DNA of 64,000 nucleotides from Clostridium sp. CAG:245 (GCA_000435175.1 FR880082.1:31476-95475); one strand, 5' to 3'; shown: positions 715-12,866, numbered from the stretch's first letter. Numbers and translations are program-made. Notes: generated by a model from the letters alone, not told the origin.

Positions 715-1362
715 TTATAGAAATTTTTTCAATCTTTCTATTGTTTTTTGATGCTTTTCAATTTCTTTCTTCAAAGCAACCACTTCAAGTTGAATCAAGG
801 TTTCATCCTTAATTTGCTCATACTCTGCACTTTTTTCAGCATACAAGAATACCTCCAAAGGAACCATACCTCTGTAGTCGTCGTATTGGTTCTCATCATT
901 TCTGTTTATACGAGCATACCAGCAGTTTTCTGTTCCTTTGCATTTTCTGTCATAATATTGCTTATCACATCCAACATCTTCGTATTTTTGAAATTTTTGA
1001 ATTGCAGAATATATGACATCTTGATTCATCACACATAACATAAAATTTTTATTCTTAAAATCAAATGTTAGTGTATCAAAACAACCACATTCACCAAATA
1101 TATCAGTCTCAACTTTTAACTCATACCACCTTCCACATAATCCCGGTATAGTAGTTTTAAACTTACAATTACCCTGATTAACAATTAAAATCTGAGCACT
1201 AACATTAAATTCTGTACAGTGCAATTCTAAGGATTCATGGCTTTTTTGTGTATCATGCCAATTACGTCTTTTTTCAAAGCAATGTTTCTTTCCGCAATAC
1301 GGACACTGAAAACCCACAAAATCTAAGCTCTTAAAAACATTTTCATGTAATATTTTCATCAT
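715..1362 (-). CDS. Cys-rich zinc-ribbon (CPYCGKKH) protein with C-terminal coiled coil; unknown function
   Basis: 215-aa ORF. Its ATGA start/stop overlaps the upstream gene. N-terminal FQCPYCGKKH motif, 12 Cys in total, heptad-like tail LQLEVVALKKEIEKHQKTIERLKKFL. Confidence 0.6.
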   Translation of the reverse strand: MMKILHENVFKSLDFVGFQCPYCGKKHCFEKRRNWHDTQKSHESLELHCTEFNVSAQILIVNQGNCKFKTTIPGLCGRWYELKVETDIFGECGCFDTLTFDFKNKNFMLCVMNQDVIYSAIQKFQKYEDVGCDKQYYDRKCKGTENCWYARINRNDENQYDDYRGMVPLEVFLYAEKSAEYEQIKDETLIQLEVVALKKEIEKHQKTIERLKKFL

Positions 1363-2135
1363 TCAATCCTCTTTTGAAAATATAATGTCCTCCTTTTCTT
1401 TGGATAACATTTCTTGTGTTTTTCTTGTGGCTCGACCTTTTTTCTTGTTTTAATATCTGATTCCAGAGTTTTCTCCTGCTCAACCTGCCTTTCAGTTTCT
1501 GATAGCTTTGTTTGTTCAACCTGTTTTTCAGAATTTAATACCTCATCTTCTTGTAAATTAGACGGTAAACATTGAGTATCAACCTGTTGCATCAACCTTT
1601 CTTCTTCAGCTCTTAGTTTTTGTTCCATCTTTTGTAAGTTTTCTCTTTGTCTAATTGTAGCATGTACTGCATAATCCTTAGAGTCAAATTCCAATGCAAA
1701 CTGAATATTTGAACTTCTCTTTCTTATACAAACTGTAGAAAACTCACAGTCGCTTCGAGTACAGAGTTCTGCTTCAGCAAATGGTTGTAGTAAATAAACT
1801 CTTGGCTCTGTTTCAGACTCTTTAAAGTCATATAAATAATAGACATCTTCATAGATACATTTTTCATTTTCAAAACCAGTAGAGATTACTAAGCTAAAAT
1901 TGCATGTTATAACAATATTATAAGATGCATAAAAAGACATTTTTATAAAAACACCTTTTTCATACCATTCTTCTTCTATACTGTCACAGCTCAAATATAT
2001 TTTATATTTTTTCCCGTACTCTGAACGTTTAACTTCTCCATCCGAAAAACTAAATCTTGAATTCCAATTATGCCATTTTCCACAAATCGGGCATAAAAAT
2101 CTCTTCACATGGCAGCTTAACAATTCAGGGTTCAT
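1359..2135 (-). CDS. zinc-ribbon (CPICGKWH) protein with charged coiled-coil C-terminus; distant paralog of 715..1362
   Basis: ORF 1359..2141. The ATG at 2135 has an AGAGGA RBS 5 nt upstream, so it is the likelier start. It overlaps the 3' end of the upstream gene. Motif FLCPICGKWH; E/K/Q-rich tail. Confidence 0.6.
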   Translation of the reverse strand: MNPELLSCHVKRFLCPICGKWHNWNSRFSFSDGEVKRSEYGKKYKIYLSCDSIEEEWYEKGVFIKMSFYASYNIVITCNFSLVISTGFENEKCIYEDVYYLYDFKESETEPRVYLLQPFAEAELCTRSDCEFSTVCIRKRSSNIQFALEFDSKDYAVHATIRQRENLQKMEQKLRAEEERLMQQVDTQCLPSNLQEDEVLNSEKQVEQTKLSETERQVEQEKTLESDIKTRKKVEPQEKHKKCYPKKRRTLYFQKRIE

Positions 2136-3003
2136 ACTCATCCTCTTCTACATAGTCTTTACAAAATACATTGTCACTTGAGAAGTATCTCATAAACATA
2201 CTACCATCGGTATGACCTATGCTTGCTCTCTGAAAATTTAGACCAATTAGTGACTGTACAATAATGATTATGTTACCTCCGTTTATTTTTTTCAACATTT
2301 CCAAAGACTTGGTATCCATCGGATTTGTACCATAGTCCATTATAAAAATGAATTTTGTATATCCAGTGTAGAAACAATTTTTCATCATTATAATAGCTTG
2401 TTTAAGATGTTCATCTCTTTCCATGTTTCTATTTATTCTTTGCATCATAGCCAAACCTGACATATATTCCGTGTCAACTTCTCTACGAACAACCTGTTCA
2501 AGTTCTCTTAAAATTGCACGACTATCATAACTTCTATTATCATATTTTTGGTGTTTCTCCAATACTGACGCACCCATAGCGGCATAAACATCCGTATCCA
2601 AAGTTATTGGGATTTTGTTGAAAATAACAATATTTCTAACATGTCTCAATGCATCTTTTACCAGTTCGTCAGCTCCCGTTCCGAAAACACCGATTAAGCC
2701 ACAAGTATCATTGTCACTCTCAGAAATATTTCTCAGTTTTCTCACTAACCGCTGAAGTTTCAGTTCTTCATCAGTACGAGAATGGTACTGCCGTTCGTTT
2801 TCATATGTATCTTGTATTGTTGTTTCTACTCTTATGTTCTCATATGGTTGTACATATGTCGGTTGCTCCTCATCGCGGATTTCTATTCTAGGATTAGTAG
2901 TTCGCGGAGCACTCCTTGTTTCTCCTGGTCTAGAGTTTGCAGTTCCATTCGTTCCTGCTTTGTTCTCATAGCCCGGAATATACAAATGGCGTCTTTTGCC
3001 CAT
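2125..3003 (-). CDS. hypothetical protein: low-complexity N-terminal region plus alpha/beta-looking C-terminal domain
   Basis: ORF 2125..3036. The internal ATG at 3003 follows GAAAGGAGAA. No motif I can assign; GLIGVFGTGADELV looks like a nucleotide-binding loop (speculative). Confidence 0.55.
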   Translation of the reverse strand: MGKRRHLYIPGYENKAGTNGTANSRPGETRSAPRTTNPRIEIRDEEQPTYVQPYENIRVETTIQDTYENERQYHSRTDEELKLQRLVRKLRNISESDNDTCGLIGVFGTGADELVKDALRHVRNIVIFNKIPITLDTDVYAAMGASVLEKHQKYDNRSYDSRAILRELEQVVRREVDTEYMSGLAMMQRINRNMERDEHLKQAIIMMKNCFYTGYTKFIFIMDYGTNPMDTKSLEMLKKINGGNIIIIVQSLIGLNFQRASIGHTDGSMFMRYFSSDNVFCKDYVEEDEYEP

Positions 3004-3028: not shown

Positions 3029-4390
3029 TCAGGCATTGTTTAATAATAAACTTCTTGCTTTATTTTTTTGTTGTTCTTTAAAATCTCCTTTTTCCATTAT
3101 CTCATAAAACTTTGTTTTTGCTTCATCAGTATAGACGCTCAAGTTTTTCTTAACTCTTTCAAAGTCAAAATCACTCCTAGCCTCAATAATTTGAAGCATA
3201 ACACTTCGGAATACCCGTTCGAACTCAAGTTTTTCCTCCGTATCTGTTCCGGCAATATACGCATACTTTTGTCTCGCTTCTGCCTTAAAAATATTTTTTG
3301 GCATTTGCTTTAAAGCATGATTTACCGTAAAGAATTCGTCAAAAACACTTTTGGGTTCTCCATCAGGTGCAGGATAGCATGTTGCAGAAAACTCTTGCAT
3401 AATACATTCCATCCTTCTTTTCTTGGTTTTGGCTGGTATTTGTTTTGGTAATTCAGCTGCCAGAGTGCCTTCAACAGGTTCGTAGCTTGCAACTCCAATA
3501 TCATCAAAGTATCCCTTTTTAAGATATTTTACAAGTTCCTGAAATTGTAAACTTGTTTCTCCTGGAAATCCCGTAATCACCTCTGTTGAAATAACTAAGT
3601 CTGGTCTGACCGTTTTCAAAATCCGAATTTTTTCATCTACAATGTCAAAAGCAGGTCTATTCATATCCTTTAGGATTTTCTTAGATACATGCTGAATATG
3701 TAACATTATTTCTACAATATTCTCATTCTCCAAAATAAGAGTCATAACCTCTTCTGTTAATCCTGCAGGATGAAACCAACCTATAACATAATTGCAATCC
3801 GGAAATCTTGTAACAATTTTTCTCATTAACTCAGCAAAGTTTCTCTTGCCATACAAGTCAACACCATAATCAGCCGTTTCTTGTGCTCCGGTTATATAAA
3901 TAGTAGACTCATTAGCATGCATTGCTTCAATTTCATCCAAGATATCTTCCATTGGTCTGCTCTTATACATTCCTACAATTTTCGGATATACACAATAAGA
4001 ACATTTATGAAGGCATCCTGTAGAAATAATTACTTTGTTCTGTGGAATATACTGTTTAACTGTAGTCGGCTTTGCAAGTGTAACAAAAACCTCATTTAAC
4101 GGTATTACGTCAATCCCGGGAATTGCTTCCAAGTCGGAGTGGCATAATTTTTCAAGGCAACCAGTAACAATGATTTTTGCACTAGGTTTTGCATTAATTC
4201 TAACGTCTGCAATCACATCAACAGAATACATCTTATGTGGGCCGAAGGCGCATGTGAGAATAATCACTGTATCAGCAATAGTATAATCACATACGACTTC
4301 GTACCCTGTTGCCATAAGATGATTTACGATGGTGTTTGCATTAGCTATATCCATGTGCATATCATTGCAAATAACTAATGCAACTTTCAA
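3029..4390 (-). CDS. radical SAM methylthiotransferase-family enzyme (MiaB/RimO/MtaB-like) with a non-TRAM C-terminal domain
   Basis: 453 aa. TTG start 8 nt after an AGGAGG RBS. CLHKCSYC gives the CxxxCxxC radical-SAM cluster. Three N-terminal Cys (ICND, LTCAFG, VTGCLEK) match the MTTase N-domain pattern. The last ~110 aa are helical/charged rather than TRAM-like. Confidence 0.8.
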   Translation of the reverse strand: MKVALVICNDMHMDIANANTIVNHLMATGYEVVCDYTIADTVIILTCAFGPHKMYSVDVIADVRINAKPSAKIIVTGCLEKLCHSDLEAIPGIDVIPLNEVFVTLAKPTTVKQYIPQNKVIISTGCLHKCSYCVYPKIVGMYKSRPMEDILDEIEAMHANESTIYITGAQETADYGVDLYGKRNFAELMRKIVTRFPDCNYVIGWFHPAGLTEEVMTLILENENIVEIMLHIQHVSKKILKDMNRPAFDIVDEKIRILKTVRPDLVISTEVITGFPGETSLQFQELVKYLKKGYFDDIGVASYEPVEGTLAAELPKQIPAKTKKRRMECIMQEFSATCYPAPDGEPKSVFDEFFTVNHALKQMPKNIFKAEARQKYAYIAGTDTEEKLEFERVFRSVMLQIIEARSDFDFERVKKNLSVYTDEAKTKFYEIMEKGDFKEQQKNKARSLLLNNA

Positions 4391-4391
4391 T

Positions 4392-4973
4392 TTAGTAGCC
4401 TCCTACCCTCAATTTCTGACGGTTTTCTGTCTTAACTTCTGCTGCACTTTCCTTCAAGTATTCTTTGGTAAATTCTCTTTGCTCAATTTTTCCCAAAGAA
4501 TCTTCAAGTTGAAGATACTTCGCACATTTTTTTCCTTTCAACCCCTTAGGTTCAAAAGTCAGATTTCCATCTTTAGATACTGTTACCAACATATGGCCAC
4601 CATCGGTATCCTGTGGATCCCTTACCTTATAGATGTCATTACCCTTCGGAGTTACATAAAAATGTAATCTTTTTGCAACCTTTTTAAGCATCTCAACAGA
4701 ATAATTGTGCAGAAGAATGCTACCTCTCGGTCCAATAGTCCTTTCAACATACCCACCATAAAAATCAGCAGTAATGCGATAAGAACCAGTACCATTCTTT
4801 TCCAGAGCCATATCATATTGTCCAGGCAATCTGACAACATTCTCTTTCATTTCTGTTCCAAAATAATACCGACAGCTTCCATAGCTTTGCATGGTAAGCC
4901 CCATATTATTAAGAGCTTTGTTGCAAGCGTCAAGATCTCTGATTTCAGCAGAAACATGCGTAAAGTGACTCAT
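4392..4973 (-). CDS. DUF1257 (Ycf35-like) and DUF2997 fusion protein
   Basis: N-terminus MSHFTHVSAEIRDLDACNKALNNMGL...YDMALEKNGTGSYRITADFYGG resembles Ycf35/DUF1257. C-terminal MLVTVSKDGNLTFEPKGLKGKKCAKYLQLEDSLGKIEQREFTKEY resembles DUF2997. ATGA overlap with the AAA+ gene stop; GGAGGAAATAAGGA RBS. Confidence 0.7.
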   Translation of the reverse strand: MSHFTHVSAEIRDLDACNKALNNMGLTMQSYGSCRYYFGTEMKENVVRLPGQYDMALEKNGTGSYRITADFYGGYVERTIGPRGSILLHNYSVEMLKKVAKRLHFYVTPKGNDIYKVRDPQDTDGGHMLVTVSKDGNLTFEPKGLKGKKCAKYLQLEDSLGKIEQREFTKEYLKESAAEVKTENRQKLRVGGY

Positions 4974-6697
4974 TCCTTATTTCCTCCAACTCTTCTAATA
5001 ACACGGCCACCAGGCGTCTTTTTAGTTGCGGTCTTTTTTGCAGAGTTCTCATTTTGAGTACATACAGTAGAATTAGCGTTCCGAACATTTTCTTTGCTAG
5101 CCCATTCATTAAGAGCTTCTACGGTATCTTTCATAATTCCCTCAGAAGCGGGTTGGCAGCTCTTCATCTGCGAAATAATGTCATCACTCGTTAATTCCCT
5201 TGCATTATCTGCATAAGCTTCAAACATTGCTGATACGATAGCTTCTTCGATTTCAGCTCCTGTAAATCCATCGCAACTTTGTGCAATTTTCTTAACATCG
5301 AAGTTTTTTTGCTTCCTACCTTTTCTTTCAAGCTGGATTGCAACAATTTCTTCGCGTTCTTCCTGAGTAGGAAGCCCAACAAAAAAGATTTCGTCGAATC
5401 TACCTTTTCTTAAAAGTTCAGAAGGCAAAGATATAATACTATTTGCAGTTGCCACGACATAAACAGGAGATTTCTTTTCCTGCATCCATGTAAGGATGCT
5501 GGCAAACATTCTCGAAGATACGCCAGAATCATTTCTACCACTAGAACCAGCACCAGCTAATCCTTTTTCAATTTCGTCAATCCACAACACACAAGGTGCC
5601 ATAGCTTCTGCAATCTGAAGGGCTTTTCTAGTATTAGCTTCGGTGTCTCCAACATAGCTTCCGAAAAGTTTTCCTAAATCGCACTTAATCAGCGGAACAT
5701 TCCAACTGTGTGCAATTGACTTAGCAGCCAAACTTTTACCACAACCGGGAATGCCGACCAACAATACACCTTTAGGATTAGGCAATCCATATTTTTTTGC
5801 TTCATCGGAATACGCCAAAATTCTTCTTGCAGTGTATTCCTTTAAATTTTTCATGCCACCAATCTTAGAATCTTCACTATTACTCCAGAATTCCAGCAAA
5901 CCATCTTTGCAAATAGTTTGTGCTTTAACTTCTGCAATAACATCAATATCAATCTTCCTTTTCAGGAAAACAGATGTAAACAATGCACTGTCAGCCTGAG
6001 TATACGTTAAGCCGATAGAAATTTCTGCCGCCTTTTTTATGGTACTCTGCTTCTGTTCCTCGCTTTCGAAAGCCAATAGCCCTTTATTGTTTCTGTCAAT
6101 ATATCTGATTGTTTCATTGAATGAATCTACAAGATCTTCTTTAGTTGGAAGTTCGAGTTCAATAGAAATAATCGTCTCCTGCCAATCAGCCGGAACTTCA
6201 AACTTGCTGCTAATAAAAATATAGCTAACACCCAAGTTCTCAGCTTTTTCAAAAGCATCTTTTGCTGCTCTTAAGACCATCGGCTGGTTCAGATAATGAT
6301 GAAAATCGATAATACAGAAAATGTATCTTCCTTCACCGCCATTTAATTCAAGGCCTTTAACAAGAGCCTCTTGCGGATCAGTCATATCTGGATCGCGCTT
6401 TTTAAATACGTATCCATCCATAACTTCGTATTCTTCCGGATTTTTTTCTATTTCTCTTGTCAATTCGTTGTAATAATTGACACCAGTGTCATCTTCGGCT
6501 TCGTTTTCAGGTTCATCTTCTACTTCATAAGGCAATATTTCTACAATGCCTCTCGTACAGGTCCAACCAAACAGCTTAATTCCATATTCAATACTTGCTT
6601 GCAGGCACTCCTTAATCGCCCGAGTTTCTTCTGTGGTATTAATCAACACAGAAGAGTACCCGGAACCAATACAATCCCGAACAGATAATTTACTCAT
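4970..6697 (-). CDS. Ycf46-like AAA+ ATPase (classical AAA clade) with a large N-terminal domain
   Basis: Walker A GIPGCGKS, Walker B VLWIDEIEK, and second region of homology ATANSIISLPSELLRKGRFDEIFF. The ATG at 6697 follows GGAGGAAAAAAC; the track start at 6736 lacks an RBS. Confidence 0.85.
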   Translation of the reverse strand: MSKLSVRDCIGSGYSSVLINTTEETRAIKECLQASIEYGIKLFGWTCTRGIVEILPYEVEDEPENEAEDDTGVNYYNELTREIEKNPEEYEVMDGYVFKKRDPDMTDPQEALVKGLELNGGEGRYIFCIIDFHHYLNQPMVLRAAKDAFEKAENLGVSYIFISSKFEVPADWQETIISIELELPTKEDLVDSFNETIRYIDRNNKGLLAFESEEQKQSTIKKAAEISIGLTYTQADSALFTSVFLKRKIDIDVIAEVKAQTICKDGLLEFWSNSEDSKIGGMKNLKEYTARRILAYSDEAKKYGLPNPKGVLLVGIPGCGKSLAAKSIAHSWNVPLIKCDLGKLFGSYVGDTEANTRKALQIAEAMAPCVLWIDEIEKGLAGAGSSGRNDSGVSSRMFASILTWMQEKKSPVYVVATANSIISLPSELLRKGRFDEIFFVGLPTQEEREEIVAIQLERKGRKQKNFDVKKIAQSCDGFTGAEIEEAIVSAMFEAYADNARELTSDDIISQMKSCQPASEGIMKDTVEALNEWASKENVRNANSTVCTQNENSAKKTATKKTPGGRVIRRVGGNKE

Positions 6698-6779
6698 GTT
6701 TTTTCCTCCAATATTGTTTATTATTAAACTTATCATTTATGAAATAATTACCTCATAAATAACAAATTTTTACGTGAAT

Positions 6780-8045: not shown

Positions 8046-9035
8046 TTATATATTATATTTTATTACTTTTGCATCTGCGTTTTCTTCTATTCCAGTTGCT
8101 ATTACTGTTACCATTATTGCATCATGTATTCTTTCGTCTACTATTGTACCGAAGATTATGTTTGCTTCTGGGTCTAAGAATTCTTTTATGTATCCAACAG
8201 CAGTACTTACTTCGCTTAGTCCTAGGTCCATACCACCTGTAACATTTACAATTAATCCTTTTGCACCTTTTACAGATGTTTCTAGAAGTGGGCTATCCAT
8301 AGCAGCCATTGCAGCATCTAAAGCTCTTTGGTCGCCTTCAGCTACACCAACACCCATATGAGCAATTCCACTATCTCTCATTATTGTTTTTATATCTGCA
8401 AAATCTATATTTATAAATCCTGGTATTGTAATTAAGTCTGTTATACCTTGAACACCTTTTCTTAGAACACTATCAGCCTCTTGGAATGCTTGTATCATTG
8501 TTGTTCCCTTTGGCATTGCTTTTAATAAGTTGTTATTTTCTACAACTATAAGAGCATCAACATTCTTCTTCATTCTAACAATACCGTCATCGGCATTTGC
8601 TTTTCTTTTTCTTCCCTCAAATAAGAATGGCTTTGTTACAATTCCTACTGTTAAAATTCCCATTGATTTTGCTATTTCACATACAACTGGGGCAGCACCT
8701 GTTCCAGTGCCTCCACCCATACCACATGTTACAAATACCATGTCTGTATTTGCTAATGCTTTCTTTATATTTTCTTCATCTTCTCTTGCAGCCATTTCTC
8801 CTAAAACAGGGTTAGCTCCAGCGCCTAAACCTTTTGTTGTACCTTTTCCAATATGCATAACAGTTGTAGCTTTATTTTGTGCTAAAGCCTGTTCTTCTGT
8901 ATTTATCGCAATAAATTGTACATTACGTATTCCTTCATCTATCATTCTATTTACAGCGTTGTTTCCAGCACCACCAACACCAATTACTTTAATTCTTACT
9001 AAATCGTCTTCATTATCTTGTTCTGTGTATCTCAT
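8046..9035 (-). CDS. ftsZ: FtsZ-family tubulin-like GTPase lacking the C-terminal linker and tail
   Basis: [25 protein letters not shown] and NxDFAD ([10 protein letters not shown]) motifs. Only 329 aa; it ends 13 residues after the core VTVIATGI. Confidence 0.85.
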
Positions 9036-9941: not shown

Positions 9942-10517
9942 TTAATTCCACCATATTTCTTTCCCTTGTGGTTCCCCCCAATCAATTTCATATGGGATAT
10001 ATGTTTCTTGAATATTCATAAATATACTTCTACGTCTAGCGTCTCTTTTTATTTCAGATATAAATTGTGGCAGATTCGTTAAAGTTACTATTTTGCCCAA
10101 ATTAGTTAACCTGAGTACTTCTTTTGCTTTCTTTAATACCTCTGCTTTTTCTGTTTTTGGAACCTTAATTATACCATTATTAGTTTTATATATTCCTATA
10201 ACATAATTCTCTAATGTCGGAAACATATTTTGAATAAGAAATACTCCTCTTTTTCCGGCAATATTTTCAAAAAACACAAAATTGTTCGGCTCTTTTTTTA
10301 TTTTTTCTCTAATTCTTATATATATTTTTTGATATTTCTCATACTGTGTTGACATTGGTATAACCCAAAGTATTTCTTTTTCTTTGCTATCTCTAAAGCA
10401 AAAATATGCTGGTCTTTTATTTTCGCTTCCTTTGTTTTCCATTATGCTATATTTGATACCATACTTGTCCATAAACTCATCACAAATAAAGCATAAGTTT
10501 CCTTCTTTTAATTCCAT
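9942..10517 (-). CDS. type III toxin-antitoxin toxin, ToxN/AbiQ/CptN-like endoribonuclease
   Basis: 191 aa. RPAYFCF...LWVIPMST and FLIQNMFPTLENYV align by eye with ToxN KAFIGIV...YLAPLTSP and LINLKFMIPIIEAEV. The repeat-terminator-toxin architecture upstream supports the call. Confidence 0.7.
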   Translation of the reverse strand: MELKEGNLCFICDEFMDKYGIKYSIMENKGSENKRPAYFCFRDSKEKEILWVIPMSTQYEKYQKIYIRIREKIKKEPNNFVFFENIAGKRGVFLIQNMFPTLENYVIGIYKTNNGIIKVPKTEKAEVLKKAKEVLRLTNLGKIVTLTNLPQFISEIKRDARRRSIFMNIQETYIPYEIDWGEPQGKEIWWN

Positions 10518-10530
10518 ATATTACCTCCAT

Positions 10531-10577
10531 AAAAAAATGGAGAAACTCAATTTACTACTGCATTTAAGTTTCTCCAT
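10531..10577 (-). terminator. intrinsic terminator between the antitoxin repeats and the toxin (type III TA attenuator)
   Basis: ATGGAGAAACT / AGTTTCTCCAT gives an 11-bp perfect stem followed by TTTTTTT on the minus strand. The GGAGG RBS and toxin ATG at 10517 lie directly downstream. Confidence 0.7.
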
Positions 10578-10587
10578 CTATATATTT

Positions 10588-10681
10588 TTTCATAGCATAT
10601 TTATACTAGCCTGCTAAGGGGCATTTGTATATCGTTTCATAGCATATTTACCCAATCGCCTACTAAGGGGCTGACATTATA
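10588..10681 (-). ncRNA. candidate type III antitoxin RNA: two tandem 47-nt repeats
   Basis: Plus-strand units 10588-10634 and 10635-10681 share the blocks TTTCATAGCATATTTA (16/16) and CTAAGGGGC (9/9). They sit between the promoter and the terminator. Confidence 0.65.
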
Positions 10682-10692
10682 TTTACATATTT

Positions 10693-10721
10693 ATTGTACC
10701 ATCAGACTTTTGCTAAGTCAA
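10693..10721 (-). promoter_or_regulatory. promoter of the type III TA locus (TTGACT, 17 nt spacer, TGG-TACAAT)
   Basis: Minus strand: -35 at 10721-10716 and -10 at 10698-10693. The predicted TSS lies just before repeat unit 2. Confidence 0.55.
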
Positions 10722-10778: not shown

Positions 10779-12866
10779 TTATTTTCCTGAATTTGTTTCT
10801 TTATTTTCTTCGTTATTTGTTGTATTTTCGCTATTTTCTACTGGCATGTTGCTTTCTTCTTTTTTACTGTCTTTTTTCAAGCTATCTACTACAAATATGA
10901 ATTTTGTTGTTCCTTCCGCTTCTTCGTCTTTTCCTGCAAAGCTATTGTATTCGTTTGCTAAGTCTTGTAGTTTTTCTACTCTTGTTTGTAAGTCTTTTAC
11001 GTCTCCGTTTACCATTGAAACTATTTTGTTTATTCCTTCTTTATCAAATTCAGATATTCCTTCTGCTAGTGTTTTAGCACCGTCAGATATTGTACTTGCA
11101 CCTTCTAATAATTGCTTGTTAGCACTGTTTAATTTATCACTTGATGTGTTTAATGTGCTTAATCCTGTTTTTAACTCTTTTGAACCGCTTGCAAGTGTGC
11201 TTACTCCTGTTTGTAATTTGCTTGTTCCTTGGCTTAATGTTGATGTACCATTCTTTAATTCGTTTGATCCTGCTATTAATTCTGTTGTTCCGTCTGTTAT
11301 AGCATCAAATCCTGATGAGATTTCGCTTATTCCACTCTTTATGCTTGATGTAGCTTGTGTCTTTAATGTATTTAATCCAGCTTTTACGCCTTTTTCATTA
11401 TCATTTATTGCATCTAATCCCGCTTCTTGTGCCTTTGTTGTTTGAGTAACTGCACTGTCTATTGCTGTTCCAATTTGTTTTGACATAGCTTGTTTTTCTG
11501 CATCTGATATTGATATACTTGAAAGTGCTTTTTGAATTGCAAGTTTTTCCTCTTTTGTTAATGTTTCATCTGCAAGAATTTCTTTTTGTACACTTGCCAT
11601 TTTCTTTTCCATTGTGCTATCTATTGCAGAAGATACTGCTGAGCTTACTCCTGTTTTTAATCCTTCTGATAATTTGCTGTTTGCATTTTCTATTACTTGT
11701 TCTTTTATTGTTTCTACTTCTTGGTCTTTTCCTGCTATTATTTTGTCGATTCCAACAGATAATGTTTTGCTACTTTCTTCTAATGAAGAAACAGCTTGTT
11801 CTTTTCCGGCAGATACTCCTGTTTGTAATGAATTTAATCCATCACTTAAATCACTTGCACCTCGATTTAATTTATTTGCACCGCTCTTTAGTGTGCTTAT
11901 GTTTGAATTTACAGAATCAATTCCTTCGTCTATTTTATTGTAGCTGTTTGTAGCAGTGTTTATTCCTTGATTGAAGGCTTCTAATCCATCAGCAAATTCT
12001 GTACTCTTTGAAACATATTCTTCTGTTCCGTCTTGTAAAGTCTTTGCACCCTCAACTAATTGTGTTGAAGCGGATTTTAAATCATTTATTTGGCTATAAA
12101 CTTCGTCTAATTTATCCATTGCAGAAACATCAGTATCATCAAATATTTTTGGTGTTACATATGACATTATATTTCCCATTTCAAAGTCTGTTGCTTCAAA
12201 GCTTATTTCAACCTTATTTAAATCTGGTAAATCTTCGTCTTCTAATCCTAAGCTTTCTATTAGTCCTGGGCAAGCAAGACCAACAACTACTGTCTTTTGG
12301 CCATTATCTAGAACTTTACCATTTGTAACTTCTATGTTTTTCATTTTTGTGTTATCTAGCATAGTTCCAGCCATTACAACAAATGGTACATACATTTTCT
12401 CACTCTTACCATTTATATTAACAAATCTTTCTTCTTTATTTGTATATTCTATTGTTATTTTTACATTTCCACTCTTGCCAATTAAATCATTTGGAGCAAT
12501 TTCTTCTCCGTTTAATTCATATTTAATTGTACAATCTAATGGTAATTCTCTGTCTGTATTTCCTTGATAATAAATATCATTTCCAGATGTCTTCCATTCA
12601 AGTGAAGTTCCATTTTGAGAAGCTTCTTCATCTCCATTAGTATTCTTTATGTTTAACAATGTAGACATATCTTTTAGCAATTCTGCATTGTCAGAATTCT
12701 TTAAATGCTCACTTACTATTGTTTGGTATGAGCTACCATTTGCATTTGCTTTAGTATAAACAGTCTCATCTTTGCTATATGCGAAAACTGGAACCGCATT
12801 AATTGTTCCTAATGCTAGCACCAAAGATGAAGCAATAACCTTTGACATTATTTTTTTATTATTCAT
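10779..12866 (-). CDS. secreted protein with an N-terminal beta-rich domain and a long LxxG heptad-repeat (YhgE/Pip-type) coiled region
   Basis: Signal peptide MNNKKIMSKVIASSLVLALGTINAVPVFA. Many L-x-x-G-x-x-x repeats (LKSGANKLNRGASDLSDGLNSLQTG...). Immediately downstream of the MMPL gene. Confidence 0.65.
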   Translation of the reverse strand: MNNKKIMSKVIASSLVLALGTINAVPVFAYSKDETVYTKANANGSSYQTIVSEHLKNSDNAELLKDMSTLLNIKNTNGDEEASQNGTSLEWKTSGNDIYYQGNTDRELPLDCTIKYELNGEEIAPNDLIGKSGNVKITIEYTNKEERFVNINGKSEKMYVPFVVMAGTMLDNTKMKNIEVTNGKVLDNGQKTVVVGLACPGLIESLGLEDEDLPDLNKVEISFEATDFEMGNIMSYVTPKIFDDTDVSAMDKLDEVYSQINDLKSASTQLVEGAKTLQDGTEEYVSKSTEFADGLEAFNQGINTATNSYNKIDEGIDSVNSNISTLKSGANKLNRGASDLSDGLNSLQTGVSAGKEQAVSSLEESSKTLSVGIDKIIAGKDQEVETIKEQVIENANSKLSEGLKTGVSSAVSSAIDSTMEKKMASVQKEILADETLTKEEKLAIQKALSSISISDAEKQAMSKQIGTAIDSAVTQTTKAQEAGLDAINDNEKGVKAGLNTLKTQATSSIKSGISEISSGFDAITDGTTELIAGSNELKNGTSTLSQGTSKLQTGVSTLASGSKELKTGLSTLNTSSDKLNSANKQLLEGASTISDGAKTLAEGISEFDKEGINKIVSMVNGDVKDLQTRVEKLQDLANEYNSFAGKDEEAEGTTKFIFVVDSLKKDSKKEESNMPVENSENTTNNEENKETNSGK

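Follow-up and report, generated by a model that had tools for sequence, protein, structure and literature searches.

The CptIN family of type III toxin-antitoxin (TA) systems was defined by Blower et al. 2012 (PMC3401426), whose cptIN loci are all chromosomal and carry 1.9-3.4 copies of a 40-48-nt repeat. The best reference is the CptIN system of Eubacterium rectale, for which there is a structure of the toxin (PDB 4RMO) and in which the crystallized RNA antitoxin CptI is an H-type pseudoknot (PMC4627078). ToxIN (Pectobacterium) and AbiQ (Lactococcus) follow the same logic, with a repeat RNA that is processed by its endoribonuclease and inhibits it. ToxIN and AbiQ are known to act by abortive infection, which has not been demonstrated for cptIN: the cptIN loci that were tested stabilize plasmids and give no phage resistance in Escherichia coli (PMC3401426, PMC4627078). 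Here we describe a locus at positions 9942 to 10721 (minus strand) of a 64,000-nt stretch of DNA from Clostridium sp. CAG:245 (GCA_000435175.1, FR880082.1:31476-95475), hereafter called the window. The locus, from an uncultured gut Clostridia bacterium of low GC content, is very probably a chromosomal cptIN module whose toxin carries a C-terminal tail derived from the antitoxin MazE. This confidence covers the identity of the parts; the function of the tail is graded separately below.

Read on the minus strand from 10721 to 9942, the locus consists of a promoter, two repeat units of ~47 nt, a hairpin followed by T7, a GGAGG and a 191-aa open reading frame (ORF). The order of promoter, tandem repeats, terminator and toxin is the same as in E. 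rectale CptIN, and the two 47-nt repeats, the toxin size and the chromosomal location all fit the published ranges (PMC3401426). The features are as follows, with the evidence in brackets.

10693-10721, minus strand: sigma-70-type promoter (10/12 consensus matches plus TG; homologous loci have a promoter at the equivalent relative position)
10640-10671, minus strand: cptI unit 1, pseudoknot core (repeat blocks and pseudoknot pairing)
10593-10622, minus strand: cptI unit 2, pseudoknot core (repeat blocks and pseudoknot pairing)
10585-10686, minus strand: whole cptI antitoxin RNA region, comprising leader, unit 1, linker UGAAACGAUAUACAAAU, unit 2 and UGAAAAAAU (47-nt spacing, conserved linker)
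10531-10577, minus strand: intrinsic terminator between antitoxin and toxin (14-bp stem, T7)
10524-10528, minus strand: GGAGG ribosome-binding site (6 nt ahead of the ATG at 10517)
9942-10517, minus strand: cptN toxin gene, 191 aa, stop codon included (NCBIfam, PDB 4RMO, AlphaFold2 (AF2)/Foldseek)
10074-10517, minus strand: CptN endoribonuclease domain (aa 1-148), MazF/Kid-like fold (NF047359, 4rmo_A, AF2, Foldseek)
9951-10037, minus strand: C-terminal segment very probably derived from MazE (aa 161-189; MazE-only matches, shuffles, motif scan, junction relic)

The CptN toxin and its MazE-like tail

The 191-aa protein matches the NCBIfam model NF047359 (type III toxin-antitoxin system CptIN family toxin) over aa 6-149 with 115.3 bits, against a cut-off of 90, and chain A of PDB 4RMO, E. 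rectale CptN, over aa 29-145 with E = 2.7e-12. The AF2 model has a mean predicted local distance difference test (pLDDT) of 82.4, rising to ~90 in the domain, which forms a confident core. Foldseek places 4rmo_A first (E = 8e-11, template modeling (TM) score for the target of 0.80; 24% identity in the structural alignment), followed by MazF proteins, AbiQ and ToxN. This ranking agrees with the MazF/Kid-like fold published for type III toxins (PMC5086642), although the likeness to ToxN and AbiQ is a distant one of fold only (Foldseek E ~1e-3 to 1e-4). Neither Pfam, ToxN included, nor PADLOC has a family that matches the ORF, and PHROGs returns a single unnamed family, phrog_33519 (E = 1e-13). 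The invariant or near-invariant residues R35, P36, D43, S56, FLIQNMFP and Y105 are kept in the window toxin, Arg35 being invariant in the family; Ser56, Thr57 and Tyr110 are also conserved. Furthermore, with 32 synonymous and six non-synonymous changes relative to the locus L083, the CptN core is under purifying selection as judged from its codons.

A preliminary description of the window had called the locus a complete type III TA locus closer to the cptIN type, and both statements hold: the toxin is recognized as CptN by the NCBIfam model and 4RMO, the repeats covary, the architecture is complete, and repeat length and copy number lie in the published cptIN range (PMC3401426). The profile search against type III toxin models that it proposed passes the NCBIfam CptIN cut-off and finds no match to Pfam ToxN. 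Its mention of ToxN-like core motifs is imprecise, since the protein belongs with CptN and outside the Pfam ToxN family. The locus was also said to be probably unannotated. This applies to the RNA, which has no Rfam family, but not to the toxin, since MFR7666456.1, in the 90%-identity cluster of the window protein, is already named "type III toxin-antitoxin system CptIN family toxin" in NCBI. Finally, the term abortive-infection module is an extrapolation, because the tested cptIN loci gave no phage resistance in E. coli.

What sets the window toxin apart from E. rectale CptN and from all relatives at 50-60% identity is its C-terminus. These relatives stop at ~160-165 aa, whereas the window protein and its close clade (L001, P0002 at 93% identity, P0005, and P0004 at 78%) have ~30 more residues and end in ...YEIDWGEPQGKEIW(WN). 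The tail consists of an amphipathic stretch equivalent to helix H2 of MazE, the extended motif YEIDWGEPQGKEIW and, before the stop codon, WN. Searched alone against PDB and NCBIfam, it finds MazE as its sole match (E = 0.046 and 0.01, respectively), aligned C-terminus to C-terminus. The C-terminal ~30 aa are in register with the MazF-binding region of E. coli MazE (PDB 1UB4) and of the MazE proteins L137 and L150 from low-GC gut Firmicutes: the hydrophobic pattern of helix H2 is followed at the extreme C-terminus by EIDWGEPQGKEIW, in which 13 of 13 residues are identical to both gut proteins and nine of 12 to E. coli MazE. In MazE, residues 54-67 (helix H2) and 68-82 are the two main MazF contact sites, II and I (PMC12557383). 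Residues 173-191 of the window toxin are predicted by AF2 to be disordered, a trait shared with antitoxin tails. Unlike MazE, the window toxin has no AbrB/SpoVT DNA-binding domain (no Pfam match), and its N-terminal ~150 residues are the CptN ribonuclease.

Metagenomes were scanned for DNA encoding DWGEPx[G/D/E]KE[I/V]W, with 80 loci kept. In 78 of these the motif ends a MazE-type antitoxin ORF exactly at the Trp, and the remaining two are the CptN clade. Nearly all of the 78 ORFs have an AbrB KWGNS N-terminus, and in most a mazF gene follows or overlaps. The 20 aa upstream of the motif, which lie outside the search pattern, keep the hydrophobic positions of helix H2 and are MazE-like beyond shuffled sequences (5/5000 for the window, 0/5000 for P0004). 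When the 46-aa tail was searched against a large protein database, only two fragments came back, both of the same protein, the word-based collection of candidates being unsuited to such a short motif. Six-frame scanning of the 80 cptIN genome loci for the motif turned up no MazE-type antitoxin in them.

The DNA at the end of the gene also points to a mazEF operon. In the 78%-identical clade, the gene end ...ATATGG-TGAAACAA corresponds to a mazE stop overlapping a mazF start (ATG GTG AAA CAA, MVKQ), as found in the mazEF locus L134. This junction relic is seen in L081 and L082, after which the mazF frame decays (MVKQFLIK, then a stop); by chance, 0.13% of positions are expected to match any observed junction 8-mer. 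The stop codon is TGA in L081 and has mutated to TGG in the window, adding WN. Compared with mazEF, the window has no adjacent mazF and has lost the original stop; a relative keeps the overlapping junction.

In two comparisons, with the 93% and 78% relatives, codons 175-189 show ten synonymous and no non-synonymous changes, whereas the adjoining helix (149-172) shows six synonymous and 21 non-synonymous ones. By this measure residues 175-189 are under purifying selection, and an origin of the tail as read-through junk was rejected on the same pattern. Taken together, these observations identify the tail as a captured 3' end of mazE that has been kept under selection while mazF has gone from the site.

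Several related proteins vary at the C-terminus. In L001 (5001-5576), codons 180-181 change from WG to FW by three adjacent G-to-T changes (TGGGGG to TTTTGG); this and the variant in P0001 could be real polymorphism or assembly error. The CptN relatives P0021 (237 aa) and P0023 (263 aa) are extended at the C-terminus by 75-100 aa that have no relation to the MazE tail; these long extensions may be fusions or gene-calling artefacts. On the metagenome contig L122 (Ga0209125_1001179, motif at 4051-4083, minus strand), a 120-aa ORF without the AbrB KWGNS ends in a MazE tail (...TEIDWGEPVGKEVW), with no recognizable mazF after it. This ORF may be an antitoxin of the ribbon-helix-helix type, and the presence of the tail without the AbrB N-terminus suggests that the MazE tail is a portable module.

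The CptI repeat RNA and its control elements

Homologues of the locus fall into 37 protein clusters and 122 genome matches; the 80 loci that were kept carry, with few exceptions, labels of uncultured gut Clostridia or Clostridium metagenome-assembled genomes. The layout of promoter, two units of 46-49 nt, hairpin with U-run, ribosome-binding site and toxin recurs in nearly all of the 80.

In the window, the repeat block TTTCATAGCATATTTA with its flanks occupies 10575-10603 and 10622-10650 (spacing 47), and the block GCCT(A/G)CTAAGGGGC lies at 10609-10622 and 10658-10671 (spacing 49). The two spacings indicate two units of ~47 nt that differ by a 2-nt indel in the loop separating the blocks. 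The units were detected by a custom offset scan and by a repeat search; Tandem Repeats Finder reported no array here, because there are only two diverged copies.

Each unit contains two interleaved helices, S1 and S2. In unit 1, S1 is formed by GCC (10671-10669) and GGC (10660-10658), S2 by UAGUA (10665-10661) and UGCUA (10644-10640), and the A-rich loop L2 is GAUUGGGUAAAUA. In unit 2, GCC (10622-10620) pairs with GGC (10611-10609), UAGCA (10616-10612) pairs with UGCUA (10597-10593), and L2 is UAGUAUAAAUA. The sole in-stem difference between the units, U10662-G10643 in unit 1 versus C-G in unit 2, keeps the pairing. Homologous units share one topology: an S1 5' strand (GCCA, CGCA or GACAC), 1-2 nt, an S2 5' strand (CCAGU, CCUAU, CCUGC, CUAGG or UAGYA), the S1 3' strand, an A-rich loop with AUAAAU, the S2 3' strand and a UGAAA-type linker whose invariant A is conserved across loci.

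The pairing was tested for covariation in 23 units, drawn from 12 loci and aligned with MAFFT; slid 3' partners and 500 shuffles served as controls. The two helices have 84.6% paired cells, compared with 31-45% in the slid controls, and 52 double-change cells, compared with 8-20; eight of the ten pairs show double changes. None of the 500 shuffles attained the observed pairing values. The window units themselves satisfy four of five S2 pairs and three of five S1 pairs. Covariation thus supports a fold of each repeat unit as an H-type pseudoknot. The same order of pseudoknot elements and the same L2 motif AUAAAU are found in E. rectale CptI, which has a UAUAAAU loop motif (sequence taken from a primer in PMC4627078), and both systems have an A-rich L2 and a GA/AA-type linker. 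E. rectale CptI is cut at GA^AA, with a cyclic phosphate on the A (PMC4627078). By analogy, processing is expected in the two UGAAA linkers, within UGA^AA at about 10637/10636 and 10590/10589, which would give a 47-nt unit at 10636-10590. Compared with ToxIN and AbiQ, the window repeats are longer and fewer and their pseudoknot is of a different type. Rfam gives no meaningful match to the repeat RNA, only long non-coding RNA and microRNA noise at E > 0.3, and holds no CptI family.

The two CptI units of one locus usually differ by compensatory S2 changes (L030, L002, L023, L027, L063 and L080, at about -180 to -60 of the toxin start), for example CCUAU/AUAGG versus CCUGC/GCAGG or CUAGG/CCUAG versus CCAGU/ACUGG. 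Each such locus therefore encodes two pseudoknot variants for one toxin, and because of these differences tandem-repeat finders miss the units.

The promoter has the -35 element TTGACT (10721-10716), a 17-nt spacer and the extended -10 element TGgTACAAT (10701-10693), and is the top-ranking promoter-like site between 9700 and 11000. Promoter-like sites as a whole are no more numerous in this AT-rich stretch than expected by chance, so that support for the promoter comes from its conserved position in homologous loci; transcription would start near 10686. The terminator (ATGGAGAAACT / AGTTTCTCCAT) has a perfect stem of 11 bp, which lengthens to 14 bp if one G-U pair is allowed, and is followed by T7 (10577-10531). 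Its hairpin is present in both the minimum free energy and the centroid folds, and all homologous loci have a hairpin and U-run at the equivalent position, though the sequences are unrelated. The automatic terminator scan did not report this hairpin because its loop exceeds 8 nt. As regards these elements, the preliminary description proves accurate throughout: the two tandem 47-nt repeats with conserved blocks, the TTGACT promoter with a 17-nt spacer, the 11-bp perfect-stem terminator with T7, and the GGAGG site (10528-10524) ahead of a 191-aa ORF are all found.

Proposed mechanism and competing interpretations

The cptIN part most probably operates as E. rectale CptIN does. One promoter drives a short non-coding RNA with two ~47-nt units, each predicted to fold as an H-type pseudoknot (CptI). 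The intrinsic terminator would halt most transcripts, and read-through would yield the CptN endoribonuclease. By homology with the E. rectale system, CptN would cut the precursor in the A-rich UGAAA linkers and stay on the processed pseudoknots in an inactive ribonucleoprotein ring. If the labile RNA were not replenished, free CptN would cleave cellular RNA and growth would arrest. The toxin lineage itself is very probably a chimera, its last ~30 residues having come out of a mazEF operon as the C-terminal, MazF-binding segment of MazE, with mazF then lost.

For the tail, we tentatively favor a role as an exposed and disordered peptide whose binding partner is a MazF-family toxin encoded elsewhere, a possibility to which we give somewhat less than an even chance. 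CptN would then be both a toxin and a MazF antidote. Carried further, the chimera may form a physical bridge between type III and type II systems, as a toxin restrained by CptI that is also the antidote of a MazF elsewhere, possibly the product of an orphan mazF; this is a speculative proposal that we consider rather doubtful. If true, a second ribonuclease would be freed whenever CptN or its tail was lost or proteolyzed, giving a two-stage or mutually addictive toxin cascade.

A number of observations weigh against our interpretation of the locus. No mazF was found by tblastn with 43 MazF queries (E. coli MazF, Bacillus subtilis EndoA and 41 metagenomic MazF sequences) in the 64-kb window, L001, L083, L145 or L162, and the mazF of the ancestral junction has been lost. 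The similarity of the tail extends over ~30 residues, and near-identical copies alter its core motif (WG to FW in L001, E182G in P0001). The S1 stems of the window are only 3 bp, compared with 4-5 bp in relatives. The active site of E. rectale CptN comprises a Ser-Ser/Thr-Arg triad and Tyr104, with Asp81 and Ser85 specifying adenine (PMC4627078); Arg53, Asp81 and Ser85 align here with Gln58, Ala87 and Gly91, Arg53 counting as an active-site residue only if the consecutive Ser-Ser-Arg run is the triad. With these substitutions at specificity positions, substrate specificity and even activity may differ. Finally, toxicity, RNA processing and neutralization at the window locus are expected from homology only.

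An alternative to binding a distant MazF is that the tail acts on CptN itself, filling the RNA groove, either within one CptN molecule or across a pair of them, and so serving as a protein "safety catch"; cleavage of the tail by Lon/Clp or by a phage protease would then activate the toxin, and the protein would be a natural equivalent of the engineered MazF-linker-MazE(C35) zymogen. The top structural matches after CptN include MazF proteins, alongside AbiQ and ToxN, and the last 35 MazE residues fused to the C-terminus of MazF do produce a self-inhibited toxin (PMC3281143). No mazF partner lies nearby in the window or the related contigs, and the tail is conserved despite the loss of the neighboring mazF. 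However, AF2 leaves the tail undocked from the CptN domain, with residues 173-191 predicted to be disordered (pLDDT < 50). The binding site of MazE lies on the concave surface of a MazF homodimer (PMC12557383), but CptN is a monomer in its RNA ring (PMC4627078). Moreover, with an intact, conserved RNA antitoxin a second inhibitor is not obviously needed. We regard a self-acting tail as unlikely. The engineered zymoxin of Shapira et al. 2012 (PMC3281143), MazF-linker-MazE(C-terminal 35 aa), resembles the window protein in joining a MazF-fold ribonuclease to a C-terminal MazE peptide; it is man-made and its toxin is MazF, whereas here the toxin is CptN and cis-inhibition is only putative. It is also improbable that the tail is a functionless remnant of a deletion joining cptN to the 3' end of an adjacent mazE. 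Such an origin would account for the mazE-stop/mazF-start relic without a downstream mazF, for the drift of the stop codon (TGA in L081, TGG and two further codons in the window) and for the motif variants among near-identical sequences. It is at odds with the absence of non-synonymous changes in codons 175-189 in lineages whose toxin cores differ by 6-27 residues, with the contrast to the freely changing linker helix, and with the occurrence of the exact protein on at least 1000 contigs from human-gut metagenomes.

The function of the module as a whole can also be questioned. That it is a decayed or domesticated cptIN, with a non-toxic CptN or an RNA that no longer neutralizes, is suggested by the three substitutions relative to E. 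rectale, by the short S1 and by window units that resemble each other less than do the units of most relatives. The substitutions, however, are common to the whole 50-60%-identical subfamily, whose repeats are intact and show compensatory changes; the core shows the excess of synonymous changes noted above and the invariant residues are retained, so that decay seems slightly more improbable still than a non-functional tail. Least probable by far, in our estimate, is that the repeats are only a cis-regulatory leader (attenuator) of the ORF and no trans-acting antitoxin. They do sit in the 5' leader, upstream of a terminator, but the toxin is CptN by both NCBIfam and 4RMO, the units match the crystallized CptI pseudoknot in topology and L2 motif and covary, and in E. 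rectale one CptI unit given in trans neutralizes CptN (PMC4627078).

The cptIN core is an ordinary additional member of a known family, and the MazE-derived tail is the new feature. Antitoxins are known to be modular; in a limited literature search we found no description of a toxin of one TA type that carries the neutralizing peptide of another. Binding of the tail to MazF, or to CptN itself, would show that domain capture can wire TA types to one another, and in the self-acting case the tail would be a natural counterpart of the engineered self-inhibited MazF zymogens. As for the RNA, the ~80 loci, each with two units and compensatory changes, directly support the CptI pseudoknot by covariation over a large clade of gut Clostridia, and could seed an RNA family model of the kind that Rfam lacks.

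Genomic setting

The window looks like ordinary chromosome, with 31% GC. Its genes include those for fatty-acid synthesis, ORFs of ValRS and PolA size, FtsZ, a HAD hydrolase, an MMPL transporter and a TetR regulator. The neighboring genes were found again only in L001 (98% identity), so that the time at which the tail was acquired is not traceable through conserved context. The cptIN module occupies differing sites in differing genomes, as expected of a mobile TA cassette. In addition, the viral contig L203 (IMGVR_UViG_3300011008_002676, 63 kb) has a cptIN locus at ~3800-4480, in which two ~48-nt units with compensatory changes and a terminator accompany a CptN of 159 aa. The family thus also travels on phages or prophages, consistent with the match to phrog_33519.

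Three other regions of the window deserve mention. The region 10779-12866 (minus strand) encodes a protein of 695 aa, secreted or membrane-bound, whose long coiled repeats are rich in Ser, Thr and Ala; it has no Pfam match at E ≤ 1e-5 and adjoins an MMPL transporter and a divergent TetR regulator. At 8046-9035 (minus strand) lies a 329-aa FtsZ homologue with Tubulin and FtsZ_C domains, essentially without the C-terminal linker and tail; it may be a second, truncated-type FtsZ paralogue. Finally, in the stretches 4392-6736 and 715-2141 (both minus strand), a DUF2997 protein adjoins a 588-aa AAA+ ATPase, beyond which, downstream on the minus strand, come ORFs of 453 and 303 aa and then two Cys-rich (zinc-finger-like) ORFs. 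This arrangement looks like an uncharacterized operon.

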